Notes: generated from the sequence alone by a model not told the origin. 64,000 nt of DNA from Candidatus Woesebacteria bacterium (GCA_035389185.1 DAOORK010000001.1:631415-695414), one strand, 5' to 3'. Counted from the stretch's first letter, positions 2,875 through 21,130 are shown. Made by a program: numbers and translations.

Positions 2875-4424
2875 TTAAGATTTGACAAAAATCGGGTCAC
2901 CTCTTTGTTGGTTAACTCTGGATATTCCAGATAATTTATCCAGTCAGTTGTCCGAAATTGTATCCATTTCTCGAGCCAAGCTTGACGATTGGCATAATTT
3001 AAGATTGTGTCGAATGGTTTTATCGCATCATATCGGACTATTTTGTCTTCCACTCTAAGGTTCGATAGTACGAGCTTGATTAACTGCCTTCTTTCCTCAA
3101 CTTCTGAACTTTTGAACAGCTCATAAGCCCGATTTGACAGTTCTAGCAGGTATTTAGCCGTGATGTAGTAGTTATCTTCGGCTTCTTGAAGCATTCCTAA
3201 GCGAGTAGTTATATCAGCCTTTTGCTCGTGGAATGACTGAAAGAATTTGTCATACTCATCGTCAGTAATACGCCCTTTGAGTTTATCGAGATAAAGGTTA
3301 TCCATCATTTTTGTTAGCGTTTTGTTCTCTTCATTGAGTTTGTCGAGTTGTTTATTGTGAAAGTCCATTTTGTCTTGATGAAGATTGCTGAGATTTCCGA
3401 CTACTTTATCTAAGACCCAATCGGGGATTTGTAATTGCTTAAATACATCGCCTATTTGCTCGGTAATTGTTTCTTCTCTTAGCCAATCAGCCCCGTGTTT
3501 ACCGTTGTATTGGGTGCAATGGTAATAGACGTGTCCTTTGTGTTTTTCTGGGGTTACAGCCAGCCCACAATGACCGCAACGTAGTAATCCTCGATAGATA
3601 TACGGTTTACCTGCATACTTAAAGGGTTTTTTGTTAAAGCTAGCTTTTACCTGTTGAACTTGGTCAAAAAGTTCTTTGGTTATGATAGGTATGTACTTGT
3701 GTTTGTATTGCTTGTTTTTCCAAGTCATTATGCCGTAGTAGAAGTGGTCTTTTAGAATTTTGTCGGTCATTCCCTTTGACCAATCAACCCCGTACTCGGA
3801 TTTTATCTTTTGTCTTAGTAACTCCATTGAGAAGCTACTGGTTGCATACCATTCATAGGCTTTTTGTACTACCTTTGAGGCAAAATCATCGACTACTATT
3901 TCTGTTTTATCTTTACTAATCGGTTCTCGTTTATAACCATAAGAAGGTCGAGAAGGATAAGTACCCATTCGAAGCATCTGTTCTTGGGCTCGTTTTACGT
4001 TATCGCTGATTGCGTCAGAGTAGTATTTGGCTAGCCCGAGGCTAATACTAAAATTAAACTTTTCTACTGCTGATAACTGGCTATTGATGACTTGTCCGTC
4101 CGAAACAAAATGAAGTTCTACCTCGTCTTTTAATGCTTTGTCATAAAGCATACCGACCCGTTTATCAAAAACATTTCGTGATAATCGGTCTACCTTGTCA
4201 AAACATACAGCGATTTTTTCTTTCTGTTCAAGAACATAGTCGAGGATATTATCAAAGTCATTACGCTTAGTCTTGTATGCACTTTCATCAAAGCTAAACT
4301 TTTCTAGTATTGGAAAGCCTTTGTTATTGCAGTATTTCTCAAGCCTAACGATTTGAGCGGGAAGAGAATTGCCAGCATCTTTTTGTTCTTCTGTGCTTAC
4401 TCTGGCAATTATTACTGCTTTCAT
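2871..4424 (-). CDS. large serine recombinase (resolvase/invertase N-domain, recombinase domain, zinc ribbon, coiled-coil)
   Basis: N-terminal IIARVSTEEQ and DRLSRN catalytic motifs; zinc ribbon CGHCG...YYHC; long C-terminal coiled-coil; 517 aa, typical LSR size. Confidence 0.85.
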   Translation of the reverse strand: MKAVIIARVSTEEQKDAGNSLPAQIVRLEKYCNNKGFPILEKFSFDESAYKTKRNDFDNILDYVLEQKEKIAVCFDKVDRLSRNVFDKRVGMLYDKALKDEVELHFVSDGQVINSQLSAVEKFNFSISLGLAKYYSDAISDNVKRAQEQMLRMGTYPSRPSYGYKREPISKDKTEIVVDDFASKVVQKAYEWYATSSFSMELLRQKIKSEYGVDWSKGMTDKILKDHFYYGIMTWKNKQYKHKYIPIITKELFDQVQQVKASFNKKPFKYAGKPYIYRGLLRCGHCGLAVTPEKHKGHVYYHCTQYNGKHGADWLREETITEQIGDVFKQLQIPDWVLDKVVGNLSNLHQDKMDFHNKQLDKLNEENKTLTKMMDNLYLDKLKGRITDDEYDKFFQSFHEQKADITTRLGMLQEAEDNYYITAKYLLELSNRAYELFKSSEVEERRQLIKLVLSNLRVEDKIVRYDAIKPFDTILNYANRQAWLEKWIQFRTTDWINYLEYPELTNKEVTRFLSNLN

Positions 4425-4427
4425 AGC

Positions 4428-5174
4428 TCATTTCTTGACTGGGGCAATTTGTCTTAGGTATGCGTCAAGAATAGCTTGTTTTAAGTTATCCGACTTTGCC
4501 TCGTAACTTGTAAATTCACCTATATTTTCTCTGTTGAAATGAAGTTGTCCTTCACCAACATTGCCCCTGTGTTGACCCGCTGAATAGTATTTATTTGTCG
4601 CTACTTCGGTTGAAGAAAAGACCCAATATCTAATAACATCTCTCCAAACACCCATCCATACAAATACATCGCAACACTTGGGTTTAACTTGTTGGAAGTT
4701 CATATCAAAAGGCATATCCTCATCTTTTGAGAGAGCCTTTATGTATAAGGGTTCGTGACTATTAAAATCAACAGCCCTTGATGCTTTTACTTCGATTGTA
4801 ACGAACTTGTTATCATCTACGTTTAACATAAAGTCGTATTGACCTGCATAGTTGGGGTCGATTTTTTTGGTCGGTTTAACTAAGTCAGGCACTAACTCTT
4901 TCAAATGTCCTTGAGCCCACAATTCCCCAAAACCTCTTGGGGCACTTATCTCGAAGATATGGAGGTACATATTTCTAGCGATATATTCATCTCTCATCAA
5001 GTAATAATCATCAAGGTTAAGTTTCTTTAACCCCAAGAGAGTAGAAATGATAAATTCATACTCGTTAAAAGGATAAACGGACATTAAGTTATCCAGTTTT
5101 TGCCTCAAAACGGCTTCTTCATCCTTGGATAGCTGAGATATTAAGCTGTCTAATTGGTGTTTTAATGATTGCAT
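4428..5174 (-). CDS. candidate PD-(D/E)xK restriction endonuclease, cognate to the adjacent N6A methyltransferase
   Basis: Motif YDFML...VTIEVKASR fits a D...(E/D)xK nuclease core. The gene starts 2 nt after the upstream MTase gene ends, same strand. Confidence 0.4.
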   Translation of the reverse strand: MQSLKHQLDSLISQLSKDEEAVLRQKLDNLMSVYPFNEYEFIISTLLGLKKLNLDDYYLMRDEYIARNMYLHIFEISAPRGFGELWAQGHLKELVPDLVKPTKKIDPNYAGQYDFMLNVDDNKFVTIEVKASRAVDFNSHEPLYIKALSKDEDMPFDMNFQQVKPKCCDVFVWMGVWRDVIRYWVFSSTEVATNKYYSAGQHRGNVGEGQLHFNRENIGEFTSYEAKSDNLKQAILDAYLRQIAPVKK

Positions 5175-5176
5175 AA

Positions 5177-7126
5177 TTACTTTCTTATTGAATTTTTAAT
5201 ATATTGTTTTTCATCTGTTGTTAGACCAAAGGCATCAAAAACGAACTCATTTAGCTTATCTTCGAGTTTATCCTTTTGAGTACCAGATAACAAATTATCT
5301 ACATCCTTTTCGATTTCGGCAAGAGTTTTATCGTCTATTTGTGGAAAGGGTAATAGTTCAAGGTCGCCTCTTAATACTTTGACCGTATTGAATTTCTTTT
5401 TCCATAAGTATTGAAAGATATTTGAGTTAAGAAAAACCAATACTACTTTTGTCGGGATTTCTGGAATTTTCGGGATGAGTATATTTGCACTATTGAGGGT
5501 TAGAGTTTGCTTATAGTCATAAGCAAAGGCAAGCTCACTTGAAATGAATTTGTAAATCAGCTTCTCCTTCGCTCGATATTTCCATACTGGAGCAACTTGT
5601 TGAAATTCGTCAGGTGTAAATTTGATAAATGAAGTAGCGGGATTAAATGTATATTTCTGTATATCCGAGCCTTTTAGTACCCCCTCATTATTATCTGTTT
5701 TGGTAGTCGAAATAAATTTGCCATTATTACCTGTAACGATACCCAATGCCCAATCTGCATTATCTTTCAATGTAGTGAAACTGTGTTTGTAAATTTTAGC
5801 TATTAACAGTTCGTCTTTTTCAGTAATACTTGTATCAAATGCGAAATCTGAATTATTTATAAATCTGTTCTGCTTGATTTTTGACACAAGTCCATCTTTT
5901 TGCGTAACCTCAATTTCGTTCTGAGCGTCACTTCTTTTTTGAATGGTCAACGTTATTACTGGTGACAACACTTTGCTAAAAACGTTACCTAAATGTTTGA
6001 TGCTTTTTATAGCACTACCCCTTAACAGAAAATCTCTAACATCTCGATGCTGTTTTACCTTTGTAACCGCTTCTGGTAGCACGTAGCAAAGAGAGCCATT
6101 ATCGTTCAATAGACTTAAACCCCTTACTAAAAAGTATGAAAAGGCCTCGTTCGAAATGATATTTGGATAAACCTTTCTCAACATTTCACTTTCTTCTTTT
6201 GAGAAGTGGTAACCCCAAGGTGGATTTGTTGCAATGATGTCAAACCTACCATCAGGGTTTTCTGTGAGGCTGTTTGCTACAAACATATTTGGATAAAAAT
6301 CAATTTCTGGATAGGTTGTTATAAGGTTTATTTTTGCAATCTGTACTGCTATTGGGTCAATATCGTATCCCCATAAAAGTAGCGGGTCAGGGATATACCT
6401 AGAAAAAGCAACAAGAAACTGTCCCGTTCCACAACAGGGGTCGAGAACCTTTGAGCCCTTCTTTATCTGACTAGATAAGTCTTCAACGATACCATCAATT
6501 AGTGTTTTAGGGGTGTAATAAGAACCGCCTTGGGACTTTTTACCCTCGTCGAGCAAGGATTGATATAAAACACCAAGGCTGTCAAAGCTGAACACATCAT
6601 CTACGTTTAGTAATTCTTGAAGGTCAGAAAGATTTATCTTTCCTAGTTTTTCTTCCCATTCAAGTATTACCTTCTTTATATTATTGTTCTTGAATTTAAC
6701 TTCACTTAGGGTTGAAACAAATTTATCGAAGGTCGCTAATTTGGTTTTTTTTAGAACAGAAAGACTGTGAATGAGTAGGGCGGTTTGGAGTGGTACTTGG
6801 TTTTTATTTATCTGTTCGATATAAGACTGTAATAGAGGTAGTTTGTCTTTATGACTTAATTGTTCAATAGGGATAAAGGTAGATTTTGAATTTCTTTTAT
6901 TCGCTCTATTGTTTAGTCGTTCGGTTTTTCCATTATGAATGTCGGTTTTAAGTTGTTCAATTTGTTTCTTTTCTAATAATTTTCCGCTACCCATTGGGGA
7001 ATAAGCCAGTTGACCTGTTTTAATCCAATTCCTTACGGTAGCAGTGGATACACCCAACAGCTCACTAGCCCGAAGAATGTCGAGTAGGTCTGCTTGGTCA
7101 TTTTCAAAAAGGCTAACTTGCTTCAT
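5177..7126 (-). CDS. gamma-class N6-adenine DNA methyltransferase with N-terminal excisionase/MerR-like HTH and C-terminal target-recognition region
   Basis: HTH LLGVSTATVRNWIKTGQL; motif I VLDPCCGTGQF; motif IV IIATNPPWGY; about 300 aa of TRD-like C-terminus. Confidence 0.8.
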   Translation of the reverse strand: MKQVSLFENDQADLLDILRASELLGVSTATVRNWIKTGQLAYSPMGSGKLLEKKQIEQLKTDIHNGKTERLNNRANKRNSKSTFIPIEQLSHKDKLPLLQSYIEQINKNQVPLQTALLIHSLSVLKKTKLATFDKFVSTLSEVKFKNNNIKKVILEWEEKLGKINLSDLQELLNVDDVFSFDSLGVLYQSLLDEGKKSQGGSYYTPKTLIDGIVEDLSSQIKKGSKVLDPCCGTGQFLVAFSRYIPDPLLLWGYDIDPIAVQIAKINLITTYPEIDFYPNMFVANSLTENPDGRFDIIATNPPWGYHFSKEESEMLRKVYPNIISNEAFSYFLVRGLSLLNDNGSLCYVLPEAVTKVKQHRDVRDFLLRGSAIKSIKHLGNVFSKVLSPVITLTIQKRSDAQNEIEVTQKDGLVSKIKQNRFINNSDFAFDTSITEKDELLIAKIYKHSFTTLKDNADWALGIVTGNNGKFISTTKTDNNEGVLKGSDIQKYTFNPATSFIKFTPDEFQQVAPVWKYRAKEKLIYKFISSELAFAYDYKQTLTLNSANILIPKIPEIPTKVVLVFLNSNIFQYLWKKKFNTVKVLRGDLELLPFPQIDDKTLAEIEKDVDNLLSGTQKDKLEDKLNEFVFDAFGLTTDEKQYIKNSIRK

Positions 7127-10922: not shown

Positions 10923-12614
10923 CTAGGCACAAATTGGTTGAATTTTGAAGGTTTCAAACACTGTTTGGATGTTCTGTAAGCTAAATCCAAACTTTATTTC
11001 TCGGTTCTTAAATGCGTTTACCAAGGGGAGCCAAGCTGGATTTGAAGGTATCAAAAGAGGATTATTGAGCTGTATATCGCGATATTCCTGAGATTCGATC
11101 CAATCTTCTTTTAATTCCGACCATTTTTCTTGATTTGCGAAGACTTTATAGCGTTCTTTCAGATCTATCCGTACTTTTTTGTTGTGTAAATAGAGGTTCG
11201 ATCCAACTTTGTTGAGGATGTAGCGTTTATCTTCAACCTCGCCATTCATAAATCTATCTCTGGCACGGTTGGCATAGTCAATGGTTGTGCGTATTGCCTT
11301 ATACTCATTTTGACTGTTATCGCTTAAGAGTAGAGCCTTGAGTTGCTCAATCTTCTTATTTAGCTCCCGTTTTTTGCTTTCATAGGTAGTTTCGTCAATG
11401 CTGTTGTTTAGGTAAACATCTAAAAGACGATCTAGACTTGTTTGTGCCTTATCAAGCGCTGACTTTTGAGATTTCTTGATATCGGTAGCCTCATCAGCTT
11501 TACTCTGCTCAAGATAGTCAATCCAGCGGTTTGCCCAGTCGATAAAATCTTGGGGTGGTTTTATTTTTTCAAGTTCTTGAGCAGTTTCAGCTTTTAGATC
11601 TATTTCTGTTATTGGATCTTCGTGACATTCAATCTTATGGTTTTTTCTGGTGCAGTGGTGGTAGGTGTAGGTAACAGTTCTATTTGTTCCTCTGTAATAC
11701 TTGGTTTTGACAGTTCCGGTTATGGAGCATCCACAGGTTTCGCATAGGTACAGCCCGTTTAAATCGAGCCTGTGGCTTCTACGTACAGGTCTTCCTTTTC
11801 TGCCGAGCATTTTTTGTATTTGGTCAAACTGTTCTGGTGTGACCATGGCTTGGTGTCTACCGTGATACCACTTCCCACTCCCTTTTGGCCATTCATAATC
11901 GCCGGAATAGAAAGGATTTGTTAATAAGTTGTAAAAAGTTGACCTTGGTATCGGTAGACCAGCCTTGTTTGTTAATTTCCACACGTCTGTTGCTGTTTTC
12001 CAAATGTCGATTACTTGCTCACCGTCAAGGACTTTGAGTAACGATTTTCTAATGAGGTCAAACCTTTTTTTGTCTGGTCTAATTGTTTTGTAGCCCTTTT
12101 TCCCTAGGGGATTGTTTTTATATCCAGTTGGCGCTGGGGCGGGGTACCAACCCTTTTCTGCTTTAGTACGCATACCACGTTGGGAGCTTATTCCCTTATT
12201 GTCGTTTTCTAGCTTTGCTTGACTGCAATCAAGATTGAAAAGGAATTTATCATAGGGGTTGTCTTTATAAACCCTTGAAGCAGTGGTTATTTGCAGGAGG
12301 AACTTTTGATCCATGAGATATATCAACGCTCCAGTATCAACCGAGTTTCGCGATAACCGATCAGCACTCCAAGCAAGGATGGCGTTTGCTTCACCGTTCT
12401 TAATTTTCTCGAGCATTGTATTGAAGGCTAATCTCCCGGGTTTCTTGGCTGATTTTGATTCTGAAAGTGTCTCGGTTGTTTTTAGCTTGTTATTTGATTT
12501 GATGCGATCAAGTTCTTTTGTTTGGGATTCAAGCGAAAGGGCTTGTCTCTCCTCTGATTCTGAAGACTTACGGCAATAGACTATGTGTTTAATTGTTTTT
12601 GTTTCTTCGTTCAT
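10923..12614 (-). CDS. large serine recombinase, second copy
   Basis: IVYCRKSSESEERQ...DRLSRN resolvase domain; recombinase domain; zinc ribbon CETCGC...YHHC; C-terminal coiled-coil. Confidence 0.85.
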   Translation of the reverse strand: MNEETKTIKHIVYCRKSSESEERQALSLESQTKELDRIKSNNKLKTTETLSESKSAKKPGRLAFNTMLEKIKNGEANAILAWSADRLSRNSVDTGALIYLMDQKFLLQITTASRVYKDNPYDKFLFNLDCSQAKLENDNKGISSQRGMRTKAEKGWYPAPAPTGYKNNPLGKKGYKTIRPDKKRFDLIRKSLLKVLDGEQVIDIWKTATDVWKLTNKAGLPIPRSTFYNLLTNPFYSGDYEWPKGSGKWYHGRHQAMVTPEQFDQIQKMLGRKGRPVRRSHRLDLNGLYLCETCGCSITGTVKTKYYRGTNRTVTYTYHHCTRKNHKIECHEDPITEIDLKAETAQELEKIKPPQDFIDWANRWIDYLEQSKADEATDIKKSQKSALDKAQTSLDRLLDVYLNNSIDETTYESKKRELNKKIEQLKALLLSDNSQNEYKAIRTTIDYANRARDRFMNGEVEDKRYILNKVGSNLYLHNKKVRIDLKERYKVFANQEKWSELKEDWIESQEYRDIQLNNPLLIPSNPAWLPLVNAFKNREIKFGFSLQNIQTVFETFKIQPICA

Positions 12615-13066
12615 ATGATTGTTTTACTAACAATTAATGCTCTCTTTTGCTCGTCAAGTCTAGTGAACAGCTTATTCTTTTTAGTCTTATTTATTTCTGT
12701 ATTATTAGCGGGAGTTACATTTCCACTATATGGAGGAAGTGGATTTCCTGTATTAAAAGAAGTCCAGTTCCTTAAAAACTTGTCAGGACTGAGGATTAAA
12801 TAAGTATTGTGTTTGTCGTTCGGATACTTGGTTATTTGGATTAAGTCATACTTTACGAGAATTTTTAGGTACTCTCTAATCATTCTGTCTGTTCGGTTCA
12901 TCTTTTTTGCCAATAACTTTTCGGTGGGGAAGCAGGAATATCGTTCTGGAAAACCGTAGCAGAAGCTTCTAATTATGATGTAAAGCGCCTTTATTTGTGG
13001 TTCAAGCAGGGGGGAATAGAGAATGAAATTCTCAACTTGTGTATAGCCTTCCTTTTTGTTTTTCAT
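12611..13066 (-). CDS. winged-helix/HTH DNA-binding protein (putative replication or transcription regulator)
   Basis: ...LAKKMNRTDRMIREYLKILVKYDLI... HTH-like segment; the gene starts at the recombinase gene's stop codon. Confidence 0.35.
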   Translation of the reverse strand: MKNKKEGYTQVENFILYSPLLEPQIKALYIIIRSFCYGFPERYSCFPTEKLLAKKMNRTDRMIREYLKILVKYDLIQITKYPNDKHNTYLILSPDKFLRNWTSFNTGNPLPPYSGNVTPANNTEINKTKKNKLFTRLDEQKRALIVSKTII

Positions 13067-13203
13067 TCTTATCTTTGGCTAAAAACTGGAATAGCTCTAA
13101 AAAATCCCAGCTCTCGATCTTTGCTTCTGCTTCGGCTAGCTTTCTTCCGAAGTGTTTAATTAATAACTGTCGATATTCAGCTACTGCCTGTAGGGGTAAG
13201 GAT

Positions 13204-13449
13204 CTAGACTCTTTCATACAAGCGTGCCTTGAGCTCCTTAATTGCCTCAACAAGGTCTTTGCTGGCTACTAATAGTGAACGATCCCAGTGTGATTGGATG
13301 GTGTTTTCAACATCTTCGGGTGAATGGTCAAAAATAAACTCAACAAGCTTGTTGTTAAGCCGATTGAGCTGTCTTAGTTTCAATCCAGCTGCCATTAGTG
13401 CAGTACTTAGATAGAAGTCTTTTGTGGTGAAATACTTATCTTTTTCCAT
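13204..13449 (-). CDS. small hypothetical protein (81 aa)
   Basis: ORF in the minus-strand island gene string. Confidence 0.35.
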   Translation of the reverse strand: MEKDKYFTTKDFYLSTALMAAGLKLRQLNRLNNKLVEFIFDHSPEDVENTIQSHWDRSLLVASKDLVEAIKELKARLYERV

Positions 13450-13513
13450 ATCTTGTGGCTATGATGCCTTGATATGGAAATCATCTCAGGGGAGTTTGGC
13501 TGGAAATTCCGAC

Positions 13514-14380
13514 TTAATCAGCAATAAGTCGGAAAATACCACTCCAGTATTTTGGGGTGGGTAGTTGGTATCTCTCAACGACGTCGTAATAATTTCGTTT
13601 TAGCTTAGCTTGAAGCTTTTCTGTCTGTTTAAGGTAAATTTCTTCTAGTTCGTCTTCTGGTAGGTTTCCATATTTTTCTTCAATGAGATTTCCGGTTGCA
13701 CGCTCAATTGCGGCAGATATTAGAGTGTTGTATTCACCACGGTTTTTATCATTATTGAGCATGATTAATGATTCTTCTACCCTGAGGAATGATTTGATTT
13801 TTGATCTATCTTGCGAGCTTATGTCATGACGTTTTCTTTTTAACACCCTGCTTATGCTCTTGTCTGGAGTTAAGTCGGATAAGAACTCTTGGGCATCGGT
13901 TAGTGCATTGAACACATCTTCTTTTGAGGTATTTATGCTTATTGGAATATATGTTCCTTGGGTTATTGGTGAAATGGCGGACGCTATGACGAAGTTTCTC
14001 TCAGCGATCAATCCGTTAGGTTTACGGTCAAACACAACGAAATCTACCAGTAGCTCGGGTGGAAGATTTAATTTAGTAGCCAATCTAATCTCGTCCTTTA
14101 GTAGTCTAGAGAGGATGAACCAGTTCATCATGGTAAAAACATGTGGGTCTAGCGGAGTGTTTTCTTTGTAGGTGGACTTCCAAGTATTGGCAAATTCATT
14201 TGCTAGGTCGAGATGGTTTTTCCCACTCCATTCGTATAGCGCTTTCTCATCAACAAATGGCCTTGTTATCCCAAGTTTCTCTCGGGCATTTATGGCTAGC
14301 TTGAAGGCAATATAGCTATTGAAAAACAACTGAACGCGAAGGGAGTAGTAATCTAACCCCTCAATTATTTTCATACTCAT
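13514..14380 (-). CDS. hypothetical protein, possibly Abi-like
   Basis: 288 aa; the N-terminal YYSLRVQLFF...Y segment loosely resembles the Abi_2 YYRLSxY motif; weak. Confidence 0.4.
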   Translation of the reverse strand: MSMKIIEGLDYYSLRVQLFFNSYIAFKLAINAREKLGITRPFVDEKALYEWSGKNHLDLANEFANTWKSTYKENTPLDPHVFTMMNWFILSRLLKDEIRLATKLNLPPELLVDFVVFDRKPNGLIAERNFVIASAISPITQGTYIPISINTSKEDVFNALTDAQEFLSDLTPDKSISRVLKRKRHDISSQDRSKIKSFLRVEESLIMLNNDKNRGEYNTLISAAIERATGNLIEEKYGNLPEDELEEIYLKQTEKLQAKLKRNYYDVVERYQLPTPKYWSGIFRLIAD

Positions 14381-15447: not shown

Positions 15448-15514
15448 ACTTTTCTCATTATAACGCTATGTTTACTGCGTTGTCGTCAAGGACGGATACT
15501 ACCACACTTATCTT

Positions 15515-15733
15515 GTGATATCCAAAGAAAAACTGAGCAAACTGATTGGGAAGCGAATTAGAGAGGAGAGGGAGAAAAGGGGGTTGTCGCAAGAAGCCTT
15601 AGCCGGTGACGCGGGTCTGTACAGGACTTATGTCGGTCACCTTGAAAATGGGAGGTATATGCCGACCATATTTACGATTTATCGTGTGGCTGAAGTGTTA
15701 AAGATCGATCCCCTGAGTTTGCTTAAGATTTAA
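15515..15733 (+). CDS. XRE-family HTH regulator, likely controller (C) protein of the downstream R-M module
   Basis: GLSQEALAGDAGLYRTYVGHLENG HTH; 72 aa; GTG start; lies just upstream of the C5-MTase gene. Confidence 0.65.
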   Translation: MISKEKLSKLIGKRIREEREKRGLSQEALAGDAGLYRTYVGHLENGRYMPTIFTIYRVAEVLKIDPLSLLKI

Positions 15734-15790
15734 ATTGTTGAGTTTGACGACCTGCTCGATTAAATCGTCATTGTTGGTTACAATGGGTGT

Positions 15791-16855
15791 ATGGCAAAGA
15801 AAATTAGGGTTGTAGACCTATTCTGTGGTATTGGTGGTCTAACCCATGGACTGATCAAGGAAGGTCTAGAGGTGGTGGCGGGAATAGACAACGATAATTC
15901 ATGCAAGTTTGGTTACGAGCATAACAATAGGGCAAAATTTATCGGTAAAGATATTCTTGAGGTTACGGCTGGTGAGGTAAGTAAGTTGTTTGGTAAAGGG
16001 GCGATCAGAGTCCTTGCGGGATGTGCTCCTTGTCAACCTTTCTCCAGATTGAATCTTAAAGAAATAACAAAAAAGCAACTTCAGCCACTTGAAAAATTTG
16101 CACAGTTGATTGAGGAGGTTAAGCCAGATATTGTTTCCATGGAAAATGTTAGTGAGTTGGCAAAAATGGACAAATATCCCATTTTTAAGACTTTCCTTGA
16201 TACCTTGGAAAGGAATGGTTACAGATATAAATATGAAGTTGTTGATGTTTCCGAATACGGCGTCCCCCAAAGCAGGAGGAGGCTTGTTTTGTTGGCTTCA
16301 AGATTTGGCGAGATTGAATTGGTGAAGCGGACACATAAAGACAACCGTGTGACTGTAAAAGACGTTATAAGAGATCTTGAGCCGATTCGGGATGGCGAAG
16401 TAAGTAGGAAAGACCCTCTCCATCGATCAAGAAAACTAAACGAGATTAATCTTAGGAGAGTAAAAGCTACTCCCCATGATGGTGGGGATTCGAGTGCGTG
16501 GAGTGAAGATCTTATTCTGAAATGTCACAGAAAAGAGTCTGGAAGTACTTATAAAAAAACTGTTTATGGTCGTATGCGATGGAATGAGCCAGCGCCTACA
16601 ATGACGACACAGTGTGTTGGGTTGGGAAATGGCCGTTTTGGTCACCCAGAGCAGGACAGGGCAATTAGCTTAAGGGAAGCGGCACGGTTTCAAACCTTTC
16701 CTGATAACTATCAGTTTTTTGATCCAAATACTCCATTTGTGACTGCTCATATAGCTAGGTTTATTGGTAATGCCGTGCCTGTGAGGCTAGGGTCTATAAT
16801 TGGGGCAAGTATAAAAATGCATATAAGTAGAAATGCCAAATCAATTCACATTTGA
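15791..16855 (+). CDS. dcm: DNA (cytosine-5)-methyltransferase
   Basis: Motif I LFCGIGG; motif IV GCAPCQPFS; motif VI MENV; motif X RFIGNAVPV. Confidence 0.9.
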   Translation: MAKKIRVVDLFCGIGGLTHGLIKEGLEVVAGIDNDNSCKFGYEHNNRAKFIGKDILEVTAGEVSKLFGKGAIRVLAGCAPCQPFSRLNLKEITKKQLQPLEKFAQLIEEVKPDIVSMENVSELAKMDKYPIFKTFLDTLERNGYRYKYEVVDVSEYGVPQSRRRLVLLASRFGEIELVKRTHKDNRVTVKDVIRDLEPIRDGEVSRKDPLHRSRKLNEINLRRVKATPHDGGDSSAWSEDLILKCHRKESGSTYKKTVYGRMRWNEPAPTMTTQCVGLGNGRFGHPEQDRAISLREAARFQTFPDNYQFFDPNTPFVTAHIARFIGNAVPVRLGSIIGASIKMHISRNAKSIHI

Positions 16856-18545
16856 GTTATCACTAAGTGTCCTAAATCATTTAGGCAGAAACCTTTATAG
16901 AAGCTTCGTCACAATATTGGGGGAGGCGATCTCAAATTCATGGGATGCAGATTCAAATAAGGTCAACATATACATTGATCGTGAACACAACAGCCTGTGT
17001 GTTAGAGATGATGGTGTGGGAATGACTGCTGATGAATTTCAGAACAAGTTTCTGAGAATTGGCTATTCAAAACGTAATTCTGAAGGTAGTAGCTCACCTG
17101 CTGGTAGACCTTATATAGGTAGAAAGGGTATCGGGAAGCTCGCTTTACTTTCATGCGCTGACAAGATTCATGTCATTAGCAAAAAAAGTGGTGGTGAATA
17201 TGTAGGAGGTGTGGTGGTTAACTCTGAGCTTGATGATGCAATCAGAGATGATTTATTGACTTCTCAATATCCACTGTCTGATATGGATATGAGCAAATTT
17301 GAGGACGTGATTGGTGGTCATGACCACGGGACAATAATATATTTTGAGAACATAAAAGATGGGGTTAAGAATAGTTTGACGTTTTTAAAGAAAGCTATTG
17401 CGTTGTATTTTCGTTTTTCGTTGATTGATCAATCGTTTAAGATTTTTTTAGGAGACGATGATGAAATTACTTACGCCGATCTCGAGGATTTATCGAGCAA
17501 AACAGAGTTTTTGTGGAAGGTAGGTGAATATGAGGATCCGTATGTAGAGAACTTAGAGGCTCGTTTTACTACAAAAGATAATGAGAAGAGGGGGATTGAA
17601 ATTGATGGAGCTTATGGTTTTGTTGCCTCTGTAAAAAAGCCGCGTGATCTAAAAATCTTGACCACTGATGAGCGGGTGGGGGTTGACTTGTTTGTAAACG
17701 GGCGTTTGAGAGAAAGAGATATTTTGAAGCACATCCCCACAGCAAGGTTGGCGGAAAACTATTTATATGGACAGATTCATCTTGACGATATGAATGACGA
17801 GCAAGATCGTTTCACAAGTAGTCGTGAAAGCGTTGTAGCGGATGACGATAAATATGAGCAATTCTTGGAAGTAATGCGAAGTAAAATATTGGAGATTGTT
17901 AACGACTGGGATAAATGGAGAATTAAGCACAGGGAAGATGGGGATCAGGAAAACGATAATATGCCTAAGGCAGAGAGAAAGTCGAGAGAGCTGTTTAATC
18001 AGATCGCTGGAGAATATGAATTGCCATCGGGAAATGCTAATGCTGGAAAAGTAGATGCATGGGTTGATTCATTGGCTGATGACGCTCAATACAACTTTCG
18101 TTCGTATGCAGAGTGCTTTGTATCCGAGAATTTGCTTCGTAAGCATATTGAAGATGGCGGTGTGGCACCTACGTCTTGTATGAACCCCGATTTGCAGGGA
18201 AATACATGTGAAGATAGATTTGATGAAGAAGCTGGTAATACCAGCTTGTGTAGTTTTTGTAAGGCTGAGAGAAGTAAACAGGGATTGCAAATTCAAAAGA
18301 ACGAAGCGGGAACGTCGATACAGATCAGAGAAGCAGAAGAGAATCCATTAATGTATATGGATTACATAGATCTAGCAAAGATAGCCGACGATGACATACT
18401 CAAAGAAGAAGATAAACCATATAAGCCATTGAGAAACTCGGTAATGCACACTTCGAGATTGACACAAGCTGCTAAGACGAAGTTGACCTCTGTTTTTGAT
18501 AATGTTGTTGCGACTGTAAAGCAGTTGGTCGGGTCTAACAGTTGA
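16833..18545 (+). CDS. GHKL (Bergerat-fold, MORC/MutL-like) ATPase, candidate restriction/defence component
   Basis: N-box EAISNSWDA; G1 DDGVGM; G2 GRKGIGKLA; Cys-rich C-terminus; the gene overlaps the dcm 3' end by 23 bp. Confidence 0.7.
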   Translation: MPNQFTFELSLSVLNHLGRNLYRSFVTILGEAISNSWDADSNKVNIYIDREHNSLCVRDDGVGMTADEFQNKFLRIGYSKRNSEGSSSPAGRPYIGRKGIGKLALLSCADKIHVISKKSGGEYVGGVVVNSELDDAIRDDLLTSQYPLSDMDMSKFEDVIGGHDHGTIIYFENIKDGVKNSLTFLKKAIALYFRFSLIDQSFKIFLGDDDEITYADLEDLSSKTEFLWKVGEYEDPYVENLEARFTTKDNEKRGIEIDGAYGFVASVKKPRDLKILTTDERVGVDLFVNGRLRERDILKHIPTARLAENYLYGQIHLDDMNDEQDRFTSSRESVVADDDKYEQFLEVMRSKILEIVNDWDKWRIKHREDGDQENDNMPKAERKSRELFNQIAGEYELPSGNANAGKVDAWVDSLADDAQYNFRSYAECFVSENLLRKHIEDGGVAPTSCMNPDLQGNTCEDRFDEEAGNTSLCSFCKAERSKQGLQIQKNEAGTSIQIREAEENPLMYMDYIDLAKIADDDILKEEDKPYKPLRNSVMHTSRLTQAAKTKLTSVFDNVVATVKQLVGSNS

Positions 18546-18741
18546 TATGACTCTAAAACGGGCTAGAAGAATCTTAGGGAAAAATGGGAAAGGGCTCACT
18601 GATGGAGAGCTTACAAAAGAGATTGAGATGGCAAGTTTTCTTGCGCAATTGGTTTTAAGTGTTGCGCGAACTAAAAAGCTGCCTTAGCCTTAATAAGCTA
18701 TAATTTCGGTTGGGAATACATATTCTTGATTGAAGAAAAGA

Positions 18742-19959
18742 ATGGCAAATAAGAATCTATCAAAAGCAAAAAACGCAAAGAACGATGAGTTTTATACTCA
18801 ATTTCTCGATATTCAAAAAGAAATTGAGGCGTATCTGGAGTATGACCCTAACACTTTCCGTAGCAAAGTGGTTTATAGCAATTGTGACGATCCGTTTGAA
18901 AGCAATTTTTTCAGATACTTTGTACTTAATTTCAATAAACTTGGGTTAAAACAGCTTATTACCACAAGTTATAAACCATCGCCGGTAGCCAATACGCAAC
19001 TACTGCTGTTTGGTGATGATATAACGCTTGCAAAATCTAAAGGACGTCCGAAAATAACGGCTAACAAATTTATTATCAACGAAGTTCGTGACCTAGATGG
19101 TGATGGTGAGTTTAATCTTAAGGATGTTGCTACCCAACTTAAATCAAATAAACACAACGAGTGGTGTCCTTTAGAGGGAGACGGTGACTTTCGTAGTGAT
19201 GAGTGTATAGAACTCCTAAAGCAATCGGACATTGTGGTAACCAATCCTCCATTTAGTCTCTTCCGAGAGTATGTTAGACAACTTGTGGACTACGACAAGA
19301 AATTTGTTGTTATTGGCAATATGAACGCAATTACTTATAAGGAAATTTTCCCACTAATTAAAACAAACAAATTGTGGCTGGGAGCAACCGGAAATGGTAG
19401 TGATATGGTTTTTGCAGTGCCAAATGGTACTGAAATAGCGGAGTCTGATAGGCAGAAGGCGGCCAGACTGGGGTATGTTGGGAATTATACGAGACTTGGC
19501 AATTCTTGCTGGTTCACAAACCTTGATCATGGGAGACGTCATAAACCGCTGCCATTAATGAAGGAAGCTGATGTAATAAAATTCAGCACAAAGAAGCCGT
19601 TTGAAAAATATGACAACTACGATGCAATTGAAGTTTCAATGGTTAAAAATATCCCCAGTGATTATGGTGGTGTTATGGGTGTGCCTATTAGTTTTCTGGA
19701 TAAATATAATCCTGATCAATTTGTGATTTTAGGAGCGACACAGAGAGGCTGTCACGACGAGGTTCCTGATACGAAAAAATACGATGATTATTGGGAAGTT
19801 AGACAAAACGGCGAAAGAACAGGATCATCTGGAGGAAAAACGAATGAAAACGCAAATTTGGTGGGTAACGATGGTAAGAAGAACTATTTTATAAATAATG
19901 AGGGTCGTATAATTCAGTCAGCCTATCAAAGAATCTTTATAAGGCGCAAAAATAAATAA
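18742..19959 (+). CDS. EcoRI-methylase-like adenine (NPPF) DNA methyltransferase
   Basis: N-terminal AKNDEFYTQ; catalytic motif [10 protein letters not shown]; ATG at 18742 chosen over the TTG at 18730. Confidence 0.65.
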
Positions 19960-19960
19960 T

Positions 19961-21130
19961 ATGCATACAACATTAAGGACTACTATTTCTGTAAAAGATA
20001 TATGTGATGGTTTTGTATACAACGAATTGGAAGGTAAAGGACTGTTCGGTTTATCTGGCAATCTGACTATCCAACCCGAATATCAACGAAATTATATTTA
20101 CGCTTCAGATGGTGGAAAAAGAGAGATAGCGGTCATTGATTCTATACTTAGAGATTATCCTATTGGCTTAATTTATTTTAATAAACTTTCCGACGATAAG
20201 TTAGAGGTTTTAGATGGTCAACAGCGTATCACTAGTATTGGACGTTTTGTCACAGATAAATTTGCAATTAAAGACGAGAATGGAATGGAACAGTATTTCA
20301 GCGGCTTGGCAAGTGATAAGAAAACCAAGATATTAGAGACAAAACTGCTGATCTATGAATGTGAAGGAGCAGAAAGTGAGATAAAAGAATGGTTCAAAAC
20401 AATCAACATTGCCGGTGTTCCGCTTAATGATCAAGAATTATTGAACGCGGTTTATTCTGGGCGTTTTGTAACTATGGCTAAAGAGGAGTTTAGTAATAGT
20501 CAAAATGCTAACATCCATAAATGGAGTGCTTACATAAAGGGGAGTGTTAACAGACAAGAGTTTTTGGAGCGAGCTCTTGAATGGGTGAGTAGGGGAAAGA
20601 TTGGTGATTATATGAGTCTTCATCGTAATGATGGTGACATTGATGAGCTAAAAACCTACTTTAATACTGTAATTGACTGGGTATCGAGTGTCTTTGTAGA
20701 TGTCGAGAGTGAAATGAGTGGATTAGAGTGGGGAAGAATGTACGAGCAATATCGTGAAAATACCTATAACCCCATCAAAATATCAGAAGATGTACATAGA
20801 CTTTACGGAGACCCTTATGTAAAAAATCGTAAAGGAATTTTTGAATATATACTTGGTCGTTCTAAAAACGCGAGATTGCTGGATGTCAGGGTTTTTGATG
20901 AAGTAACTAAGAAGTCGGTTTATACAAGACAGACTGATTTGGCAAGATCTAAGGGTGAATCGAACTGTCCCCTTTGTGCAATTGGTCATGACGCTGCTAA
21001 GTCTAAAGTTTGGGAGTTTGGAGAGATGGACGCTGACCATGTAGCAGCGTGGAGCAAGGGCGGGGCAACTAACCCCAGTAACTGCCAGATGCTCTGCAAA
21101 ACGCACAATCGAGCAAAAGGAAATCGATAA
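19961..21130 (+). CDS. DUF262 (ParB/Srx-like, DGQQR) N-domain fused to an HNH nuclease; candidate restriction endonuclease (GmrSD-like)
   Basis: [13 protein letters not shown]; C-terminal CPLC...[12 protein letters not shown]...[13 protein letters not shown]/Zn-finger; starts 1 nt after the MTase stop. Confidence 0.7.

Follow-up and report, generated by a model that had tools for sequence, protein, structure and literature searches.

A Dcm methyltransferase gene overlapping a paraMORC-type GHKL ATPase gene with a predicted HEPN-like effector domain in Candidatus Woesebacteria

Results

The dcm and GHKL genes

We analyzed a stretch of 64,000 nucleotides (nt) of DNA from Candidatus Woesebacteria bacterium (GCA_035389185.1, DAOORK010000001.1:631415-695414), referred to here as the window. 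Within it, a gene for a C5-cytosine DNA methyltransferase (Dcm) is overlapped at its end by a gene for a GHKL ATPase, and a small regulator gene lies upstream of the pair (Table 1). An initial annotation of the window had reported the two open reading frames (ORFs) and their 23-nt overlap, and the sequence bears out both: the GHKL ATG is at 16833, and the dcm stop codon ends at 16855. This ATG is the right start, because the family profiles align from residues 1-5 of the protein. The arrangement makes translational coupling of the two genes likely. An identical GHKL protein has already been recorded for a Candidatus Woesebacteria (Patescibacteria) genome, under no other name than “ATP-binding protein.”

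The methyltransferase is complete. Its residues 5-342 cover profile positions 1-323 of 324 in PF00145, its score against TIGR00675 is 140.8 bits (cutoff 100.65), and the PCQ and ENV motifs are present. The closest relatives with solved structures are DNMT1, M.HaeIII and M.HhaI, with the similarity confined to the catalytic core.

Table 1. Features of the dcm-GHKL locus; positions are counted from the first nucleotide of the window, lengths of proteins are in amino acids (aa) and E denotes the E-value
Feature	Position	Strand	Notes
GTCGTCAA half-site, candidate operator half-site	15482-15489	+	26 nt upstream of the start of the helix-turn-helix (HTH) gene; reverse complement of 15744-15751
XRE-family HTH regulator, C-protein-like	15515-15733	+	72 aa, GTG start; PF01381 E 7.2e-15; PADLOC Control_protein E 1.8e-12
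Inverted repeat TGACGA-N14-TCGTCA, candidate C-box-like operator	15745-15770	.	Ends 21 nt before the dcm ATG
C5-cytosine DNA methyltransferase Dcm, modification component	15791-16855	+	354 aa; PF00145 E 8.4e-61
GHKL ATPase ORF	16833-18545	+	570 aa; PF13589 HATPase_c_3 E 7.3e-22
Overlap of dcm 3' end and GHKL 5' end	16833-16855	+	23 nt, read directly from the sequence
GHKL ATPase, S5-like transducer and linker helix, residues 1-371, paraMORC-type	16833-17945	+	PF13589, NF050001, AF2/Foldseek
All-helical C-terminal domain, residues 372-570, HEPN-like predicted effector	17946-18542	+	
E432-N-L-L-R436, Ex3[KR] motif of HEPN helix 2	18126-18140	+	E432 and R436 invariant in 40 members
Four-Cys insertion, C449, C459, C473 and C476	18177-18260	+	Residues 449-476; probable Zn knuckle, located at the insert site between HEPN helices 2 and 3
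R534-N-S-V-M-H539, Rx4-6H HEPN catalytic motif	18432-18449	+	R and H invariant

A conserved and mobile gene pair

At E<=1e-5, the relatives of the GHKL protein amount to 4,698 protein clusters. Its closest 120 homologs align end to end with 53-66% identity and represent widely differing lineages, among them Dojkabacteria, Manganitrophus and Abyssobacteria. A search of about 185,000 species genomes with only two peptide patterns found a relative in 393 of them, and we examined gene neighborhoods in the best 80 loci of these 393, each from a different species (one genome per species). The 80 loci span Patescibacteria, Planctomycetota, Nitrospirota, Bacteroidota, Chloroflexota, Proteobacteria and Woesearchaeota, among others.

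In 73 of the 80 loci, Dcm is encoded immediately upstream and in the same direction. Of these 73 pairs, 64 overlap, by 4-32 nt and most commonly by 11 nt, and because the overlap recurs so often it is not a chance feature of the window. A Vsr gene is part of the cluster in 46 of the 80 loci. Besides Vsr, no recurrent nuclease gene was found near the pair in the census, which rules out a separate conserved nuclease partner. The most frequent families other than Dcm and Vsr are Type I and Type III methylases, present in seven loci each, and these reflect the company kept in defense islands.

Other loci show the pair on its own or on a mobile replicon. In one it stands alone with housekeeping genes on either side, and a conjugative plasmid of Paracoccus carries it, likewise with a 23-nt overlap. 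Across 68 related loci, the identity of the partner Dcm to that of the window is 44-75% (median 50%), target-recognition region included, and thus the methylase and the ATPase travel and evolve together. Dcm-GHKL is therefore a horizontally spread two-gene unit, joined by Vsr in many relatives and lacking a separate nuclease. The window itself has no Vsr match by tblastn anywhere in its 64 kb.

An ATPase module shared with restriction enzymes

Residues 5-374 of the GHKL protein align with positions 1-372 of the BbrUII/HgiDII family model NF050001 (E 1.4e-87). With profile positions 373-659 unmatched, the protein as a whole scores 294.8 bits and so does not reach the curated cutoff of 550 bits. 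Two PADLOC models of Type II restriction enzymes (REase_II) likewise match residues 1-376 only. Together with the adjacency and overlap recorded in the census, these matches uphold the initial proposal that the ATPase takes the place of the restriction enzyme in the gene order.

Bergerat motifs I-IV are intact (E31..N35, D59xG61xG63, G96xxG99xG101 and G166-T167) and invariant in 64 aligned sequences. The AlphaFold2 (AF2) model of the protein has a predicted local distance difference test score (pLDDT) of 84.6, and in it an S5-like transducer follows the ATPase. Foldseek matched the model to TRAP1/Hsp90, MORC2, MORC4 and SMCHD1 at E ~1e-11 over the ATPase and middle domains (about 400 columns), so that the earlier label “MORC-like” was a fair one. 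The MORC motif GhXhhpXXRhl corresponds to GVDLFVNGRLR (residues 283-293), in which the G, the hydrophobic positions and the R fit, and in which the polar position is taken by V and the last aliphatic one by R.

The more precise term for the protein is paraMORC, or paraMORC-like. Iyer et al. (2008) placed paraMORC GHKL proteins in restriction-modification (R-M) systems with Dcm and Vsr, and the neighborhood by which they are recognized, a DNA methylase together with Vsr, is the one found in the census. Orlowski and Bujnicki (PMC2441816) described R.HgiDII as a GHKL N-terminus followed by an unassigned C-terminus. They also listed four further putative restriction enzyme subfamilies in which a GHKL module is combined with differing C-termini.

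A C-terminal domain with HEPN-like motifs

The remainder of the protein, residues 372-570, is all-helical in a confident model of this domain (pLDDT 92.4). Six of its residues, Y425, E432, N433, R436, R534 and H539, are invariant in an alignment of 40 diverse family members that extends down to 24% identity. E432 and R436 are located in a long helix (404-442), followed by a site at which the family carries variable insertions. The second motif, R534-N-x3-H539, has N or D after the arginine and a nearly invariant T540. In the AF2 model, this motif closes helix 527-538, and the loop to the last helix opens with H539.

We took the motif criteria for HEPN domains from Anantharaman et al. (2013, PMC3710099). 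The Ex3R motif, the insert site and the R-N-x3-H motif occupy the HEPN-defining positions given there. Two distant members of the family match the Pfam model PF18731 HEPN_Swt1 across the motif, P0192 with E 6.8e-4 and P0204 with E 0.29, both below the gathering score. From the model and these motifs, we consider it quite probable that the C-terminal domain has a HEPN fold.

This qualifies the statement in the initial annotation that the protein has no recognizable nuclease motif. It holds for DNases, as no PD-(D/E)xK, HNH, PLD, GIY-YIG or half-pipe fold was detected in the GHKL protein. It overlooks the HEPN signature, namely the invariant Ex3R and R-N-x3-H motifs set in a helical fold. A MutL-type endonuclease C-terminus was also considered and is ruled out, the domain being all-helical and lacking the alpha/beta architecture.

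The domain is found in a single architecture. A phmmer search of 1.84 billion representative sequences returned 128 hits, all of them either 550-590 aa proteins of the same architecture or fragment-like, and none of the 128 has the domain fused to another.

The cysteine-rich segment had been noted from the start as part of a Cys-rich C-terminal 150 aa that could form a zinc ribbon. The cluster CMNPDLQGNTCEDRF...CSFC does contain four cysteines within residues 449-476, spaced as C449...C459...C473-x2-C476. They sit in an insertion of about 25-30 residues at the HEPN insert site. More than half of the 120 closest homologs have an alignment gap there, and wherever the insertion is present the four cysteines are kept. 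The segment is thus probably a zinc knuckle specific to a subfamily, with zinc binding as a predicted property, and, judged by its distribution in the alignment, does not form the core of the C-terminal domain.

Local regulation

The initial annotation had also joined the upstream C-protein to the pair as one regulated unit. For the window there is something to be said for this, since an HTH gene is present and the inverted repeat between it and dcm matches only once in the 64 kb, against 0.01 matches expected from shuffled sequence. The GTCGTCAA 8-mer is a weaker signal, with six occurrences in the window against 1.3 expected. The controller gene precedes the modification gene, not the restriction gene, here. 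The HTH gene, the inverted repeat and the half-site fit a locally acquired, C-protein-like controller, the HTH protein being predicted to bind the inverted repeat. As a general property of the family the claim does not stand: of the 80 related loci, only 4 have an XRE HTH gene close to the pair, and the regulator is a local accessory outside the family core.

Genomic surroundings

Immediately downstream, 2 nt past the stop codon of the GHKL gene, begins a 46-aa ORF (MTLKRARRILGKNGKGLTDGELTKEIEMASFLAQLVLSVARTKKLP; 18547-18687, + strand). As tblastn found no counterpart in the related loci fetched, this ORF is probably not part of the module. Next comes a second R-M pair (18730-21130, + strand). 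Its first gene encodes an N6-adenine methyltransferase resembling the EcoRI methylase (PF13651, E 1.6e-127; likely true start ATG 18742), and its second a GmrSD_N(DUF262)+HNH protein, which aligns over its whole length with a PADLOC model of a Type II restriction enzyme (E 1.1e-81). In L009/L010 and L064, all Patescibacteria-type contigs, this second R-M pair adjoins Dcm-GHKL on the upstream side, and the two modules may travel together in this lineage.

Upstream of the locus (10923-14380, - strand) are genes for a 563-aa large serine recombinase (Resolvase + Recombinase), an HTH_36/DnaD_N-like protein and a DUF5659 protein. Their position just upstream suggests that the R-M genes are on an integrated mobile element. 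No tRNA gene that would mark an attachment site was found in window positions 1-30000. From about 15 kb onward, and as far as the end of the window, GC skew is strongly and steadily positive (0.15-0.5 per kb window), which fits a long run of co-oriented genes on the leading strand.

Among the related loci, that of Candidatus Manganitrophus (L001) has an NmeDI_C gene (PF27126; 8327-9430) after its Dcm-GHKL-Vsr cluster. This gene is probably another restriction enzyme of the island.

Discussion

Proposed mechanism and alternatives

On balance, we lean towards reading the locus as an R-M-like module in which Dcm is paired with a paraMORC GHKL-HEPN effector that would be activated by unmethylated DNA and is predicted to act on RNA. 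The parts of this reading differ in strength. That the GHKL protein is an effector in the restriction position is probable. Whether its HEPN-like domain targets RNA rather than DNA is, in our judgment, evenly poised. The anatomy of the genes, the linkage and overlap of the pair, the N-terminal homology to proven restriction enzymes, the intact ATPase motifs and the fold features and motifs of the C-terminal part are observed; methylation-dependent control, activation by dimerization, an RNA substrate and zinc binding are inferred. The suggestion in the initial annotation that the protein is a restriction component therefore survives, with its predicted chemistry altered.

The sequence of events may be pictured as follows. 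Dcm would methylate a specific cytosine-containing site on the host DNA. In the ATPase protein, a HEPN-like four-helix domain stands in place of the C-terminal domain of BbrUII/HgiDII-type enzymes, and the ATPase dimer would engage DNA, remaining inactive on methylated host DNA. Unmethylated targets could be phage, plasmid, or the host's own DNA after loss of the module. GHKL ATPases dimerize upon ATP binding, and the active site of HEPN RNases is a composite one that takes two domains; closure of the clamp could therefore assemble the active HEPN dimer. On unmethylated DNA, ATP-dependent closure would bring the two HEPN domains together into such a site, with growth arrest or abortive infection, not classical DNA cutting, as the outcome. 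The four-Cys insertion of this subfamily would probably bind zinc and add a contact to nucleic acid or to a partner. HEPN chemistry is metal-independent, uses the 2'-OH and cannot cut DNA (PMC3710099), which is why RNA is the predicted substrate. Taken as a whole, a methylation-based self/non-self immunity, in which the clamp senses unmethylated DNA and a dimeric HEPN RNase shuts down RNA while the invader DNA stays uncut, is a reasonable possibility that we put forward tentatively.

Several results weigh against an RNA-cutting HEPN effector. The only experimentally characterized relatives, HgiDII and BbrUII, cut DNA, and we found no experiment on any member of this C-terminal family in the literature searched. 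The domain (372-570) has no match in Pfam, PADLOC or PDB sequences, and no HEPN model is reached even at E<=10. A family profile retrieved no HEPN sequence from the PDB. A profile of the 40 sequences found no annotated HEPN protein, returning only presumed fragments of 98-362 aa with the same domain, and Foldseek of the domain against the PDB gave nothing significant (best E ~1). Alignment to the Ymh family with hhalign was not significant either (probability 0.3%), with a four-sequence template that makes the comparison under-powered (the search for Ymh relatives yielded only three sequences for it) and with the RNxxxH motifs in register. No DNA-reading domain that would match the specificity of Dcm was identified in the GHKL protein.

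The main rival reading is a conventional DNA-cutting Type II enzyme of unusual build, which would recognize the unmethylated Dcm site and in which the helical domain with its zinc insertion would serve as a novel module, either a DNase or one for DNA recognition. In its favor, homology to BbrUII/HgiDII extends over the N-terminal 374 residues, PADLOC REase_II models match, and several features of the loci are typical of Type II systems that form 5-methylcytosine: the order of the genes, their overlap, the presence of Vsr and, in some loci, a C-protein. Dcm and the ATPase are also similarly conserved (about 50-55% identity), which fits a fixed DNA specificity shared by the two. We nevertheless consider such an enzyme unlikely. 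Library searches found no DNase fold or motif in the protein, and the part of BbrUII/HgiDII that is absent here is exactly the C-terminal domain in which an EHPWL...D...(D/E)xK pattern can be picked out by eye. The domain in its place has as its invariant residues the set of HEPN RNases, whose chemistry would be unable to cut DNA (PMC3710099).

The frequent presence of Vsr, in 46 of the 80 clusters, raises a different function, that of a MutL-like helper of very-short-patch repair that would load or stimulate Vsr at T:G mismatches arising from deamination of the 5-methylcytosines made by Dcm. MutL-type GHKL proteins influence Vsr activity, as PMC6116569 reports, and a MutL-Vsr analogy was pointed out by Iyer et al. 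(2008). However, 34 of the 80 loci have no Vsr, nor was one found by tblastn in the window, and a repair helper would have no need of an invariant HEPN catalytic motif. The module is moreover mobile and sits among defense genes, with a serine recombinase nearby in the window and a conjugative plasmid as carrier elsewhere, and its nearest characterized homologs are restriction enzymes. We regard the repair function as improbable. Still further down we place a non-catalytic reader or regulator of methylation, a MORC-like clamp whose HEPN-like domain only binds and which might, for example, silence or compact unmethylated DNA. Eukaryotic MORCs clamp and compact DNA, and some HEPN domains are non-catalytic binding modules (PMC3710099). 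Such domains typically lose the Rx4-6H motif according to the same source, whereas R534 and H539 are invariant in this family, and we hold this last explanation to be very improbable.

Significance

The link between paraMORC proteins and R-M systems was predicted computationally in 2008, and a link between HEPN domains and paraMORC in 2013. The C-terminal family described here is in no domain library and has no name, and its members are annotated only as “ATP-binding protein.” As far as we found, the GHKL/paraMORC members with a demonstrated activity carry either a DNA-cutting domain (VcSduA) or a suggestive pattern seen by eye (HgiDII/BbrUII).

If the domain is indeed a HEPN domain, the locus would offer a clean setting, of just two genes, in which to study how DNA methylation is read by a MORC-like ATPase and signaled to its effector, a question that also concerns the eukaryotic MORCs. 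It would further imply that self-recognition based on methylation can be coupled to the cleavage of RNA. Should the effector be an RNase, many putative GHKL-HEPN Type II “restriction enzymes” would be misclassified. If the protein cuts DNA instead, its C-terminal domain would add to the Type II enzymes a new fold, that of a DNase or of a DNA-recognition module.

Comparison with known systems

One comparison is with eukaryotic MORC/SMCHD1 and Hsp90/TRAP1 proteins. They share the fold of the ATPase and middle domains, and MORC3 is also a weak match in sequence. The identity is 13-17%, however, the MORC signature is partial, and the window protein has neither a CW nor a coiled-coil domain.

Another is with the Shedu type I-D protein VcSduA (paraMORC3; PMC12137116), for which anti-phage defense has been shown and requires both the ATPase and the nuclease residues. 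As in the window protein, a GHKL ATPase and a C-terminal effector are combined in a single polypeptide. In VcSduA, the effector is a DUF4263 PD-(D/E)xK DNase that works without a methylase, whereas the window effector is HEPN-like and tied to Dcm; Pfam and PADLOC found no DUF4263 in the GHKL protein.

Control of a C-terminal HEPN RNase by an NTP-driven dimerizing module is known from PrrC/RloC (ABC ATPase plus HEPN) and from RNase L/Ire1 (a kinase-type dimerizer plus KEN/HEPN), and PrrC resembles the window protein also in its functional link to an R-M system. These proteins use an ABC or kinase fold in place of GHKL, so that the likeness is one of analogy, with homology only within the HEPN superfamily. 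PrrC differs too in that it guards a complete Type I R-M system, while the pair in the window has no separate restriction enzyme.

Fusions of paraMORC and Ymh (HEPN) domains were reported in R-M neighborhoods and likened to PrrC/RloC (PMC3710099). These proteins, of the R.NmeAIP type (PMC2441816), resemble the window protein in joining GHKL to a helical C-terminus with RNxxxH. Our control, GHKL-Ymh of Neisseria gonorrhoeae, matches PF09509 with E 2.9e-25 and has the motif FRNPVQH, and its locus has the gene order dcm, GHKL-HEPN, vsr. The C-terminal domain in the window, by contrast, has no PF09509 match, and the N-terminal identity is only about 27%. If anything, this domain would be nearer the Swt1-like HEPN clade than Ymh. 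No experimental work on the paraMORC-Ymh type or on the window type was found in the literature searched. In the gonococcal locus (L011, 3071-6036), dcm and the GHKL-Ymh gene are each split into two ORFs by frameshifts, with the downstream vsr intact, and this module is a decayed system that has retained its repair gene.

The nearest characterized relatives, BbrUII and HgiDII, are proven Type II restriction enzymes and isoschizomers of SalI. They have the N-terminal GHKL ATPase, the transducer module and the linker helix in common with the window protein. Genes of this type also lie downstream of, and overlap, a C5-methylase gene, as in Haloplanus (L092) and C. coli (L094). As a positive control, the Haloplanus protein (3507-5492) is a true member of NF050001 (793.8 bits) with a 290-aa C-terminus that has no Rx4H. 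The difference is in the C-terminus: the PADLOC model PDLC03419 covers that of the Haloplanus protein (domain E 9.8e-22) and leaves the window protein's C-terminal domain unmatched. The latter does not match family profile positions 373-659, having a HEPN-like domain of 200 aa instead. By eye, the pattern “EHPWLLDP...D...IDLKRP” can be recognized in Haloplanus and “EHPWLINP...D...IVELKK” in C. coli (3501-5531). This motif pattern suggests that the BbrUII/HgiDII C-terminus is a PD-(D/E)xK nuclease; searches of it against Pfam, PADLOC and PDB sequences gave nothing beyond the family's own model. By its profile matches, the family in the window retains a genuine restriction enzyme's ATPase engine and couples it to a different predicted effector domain.

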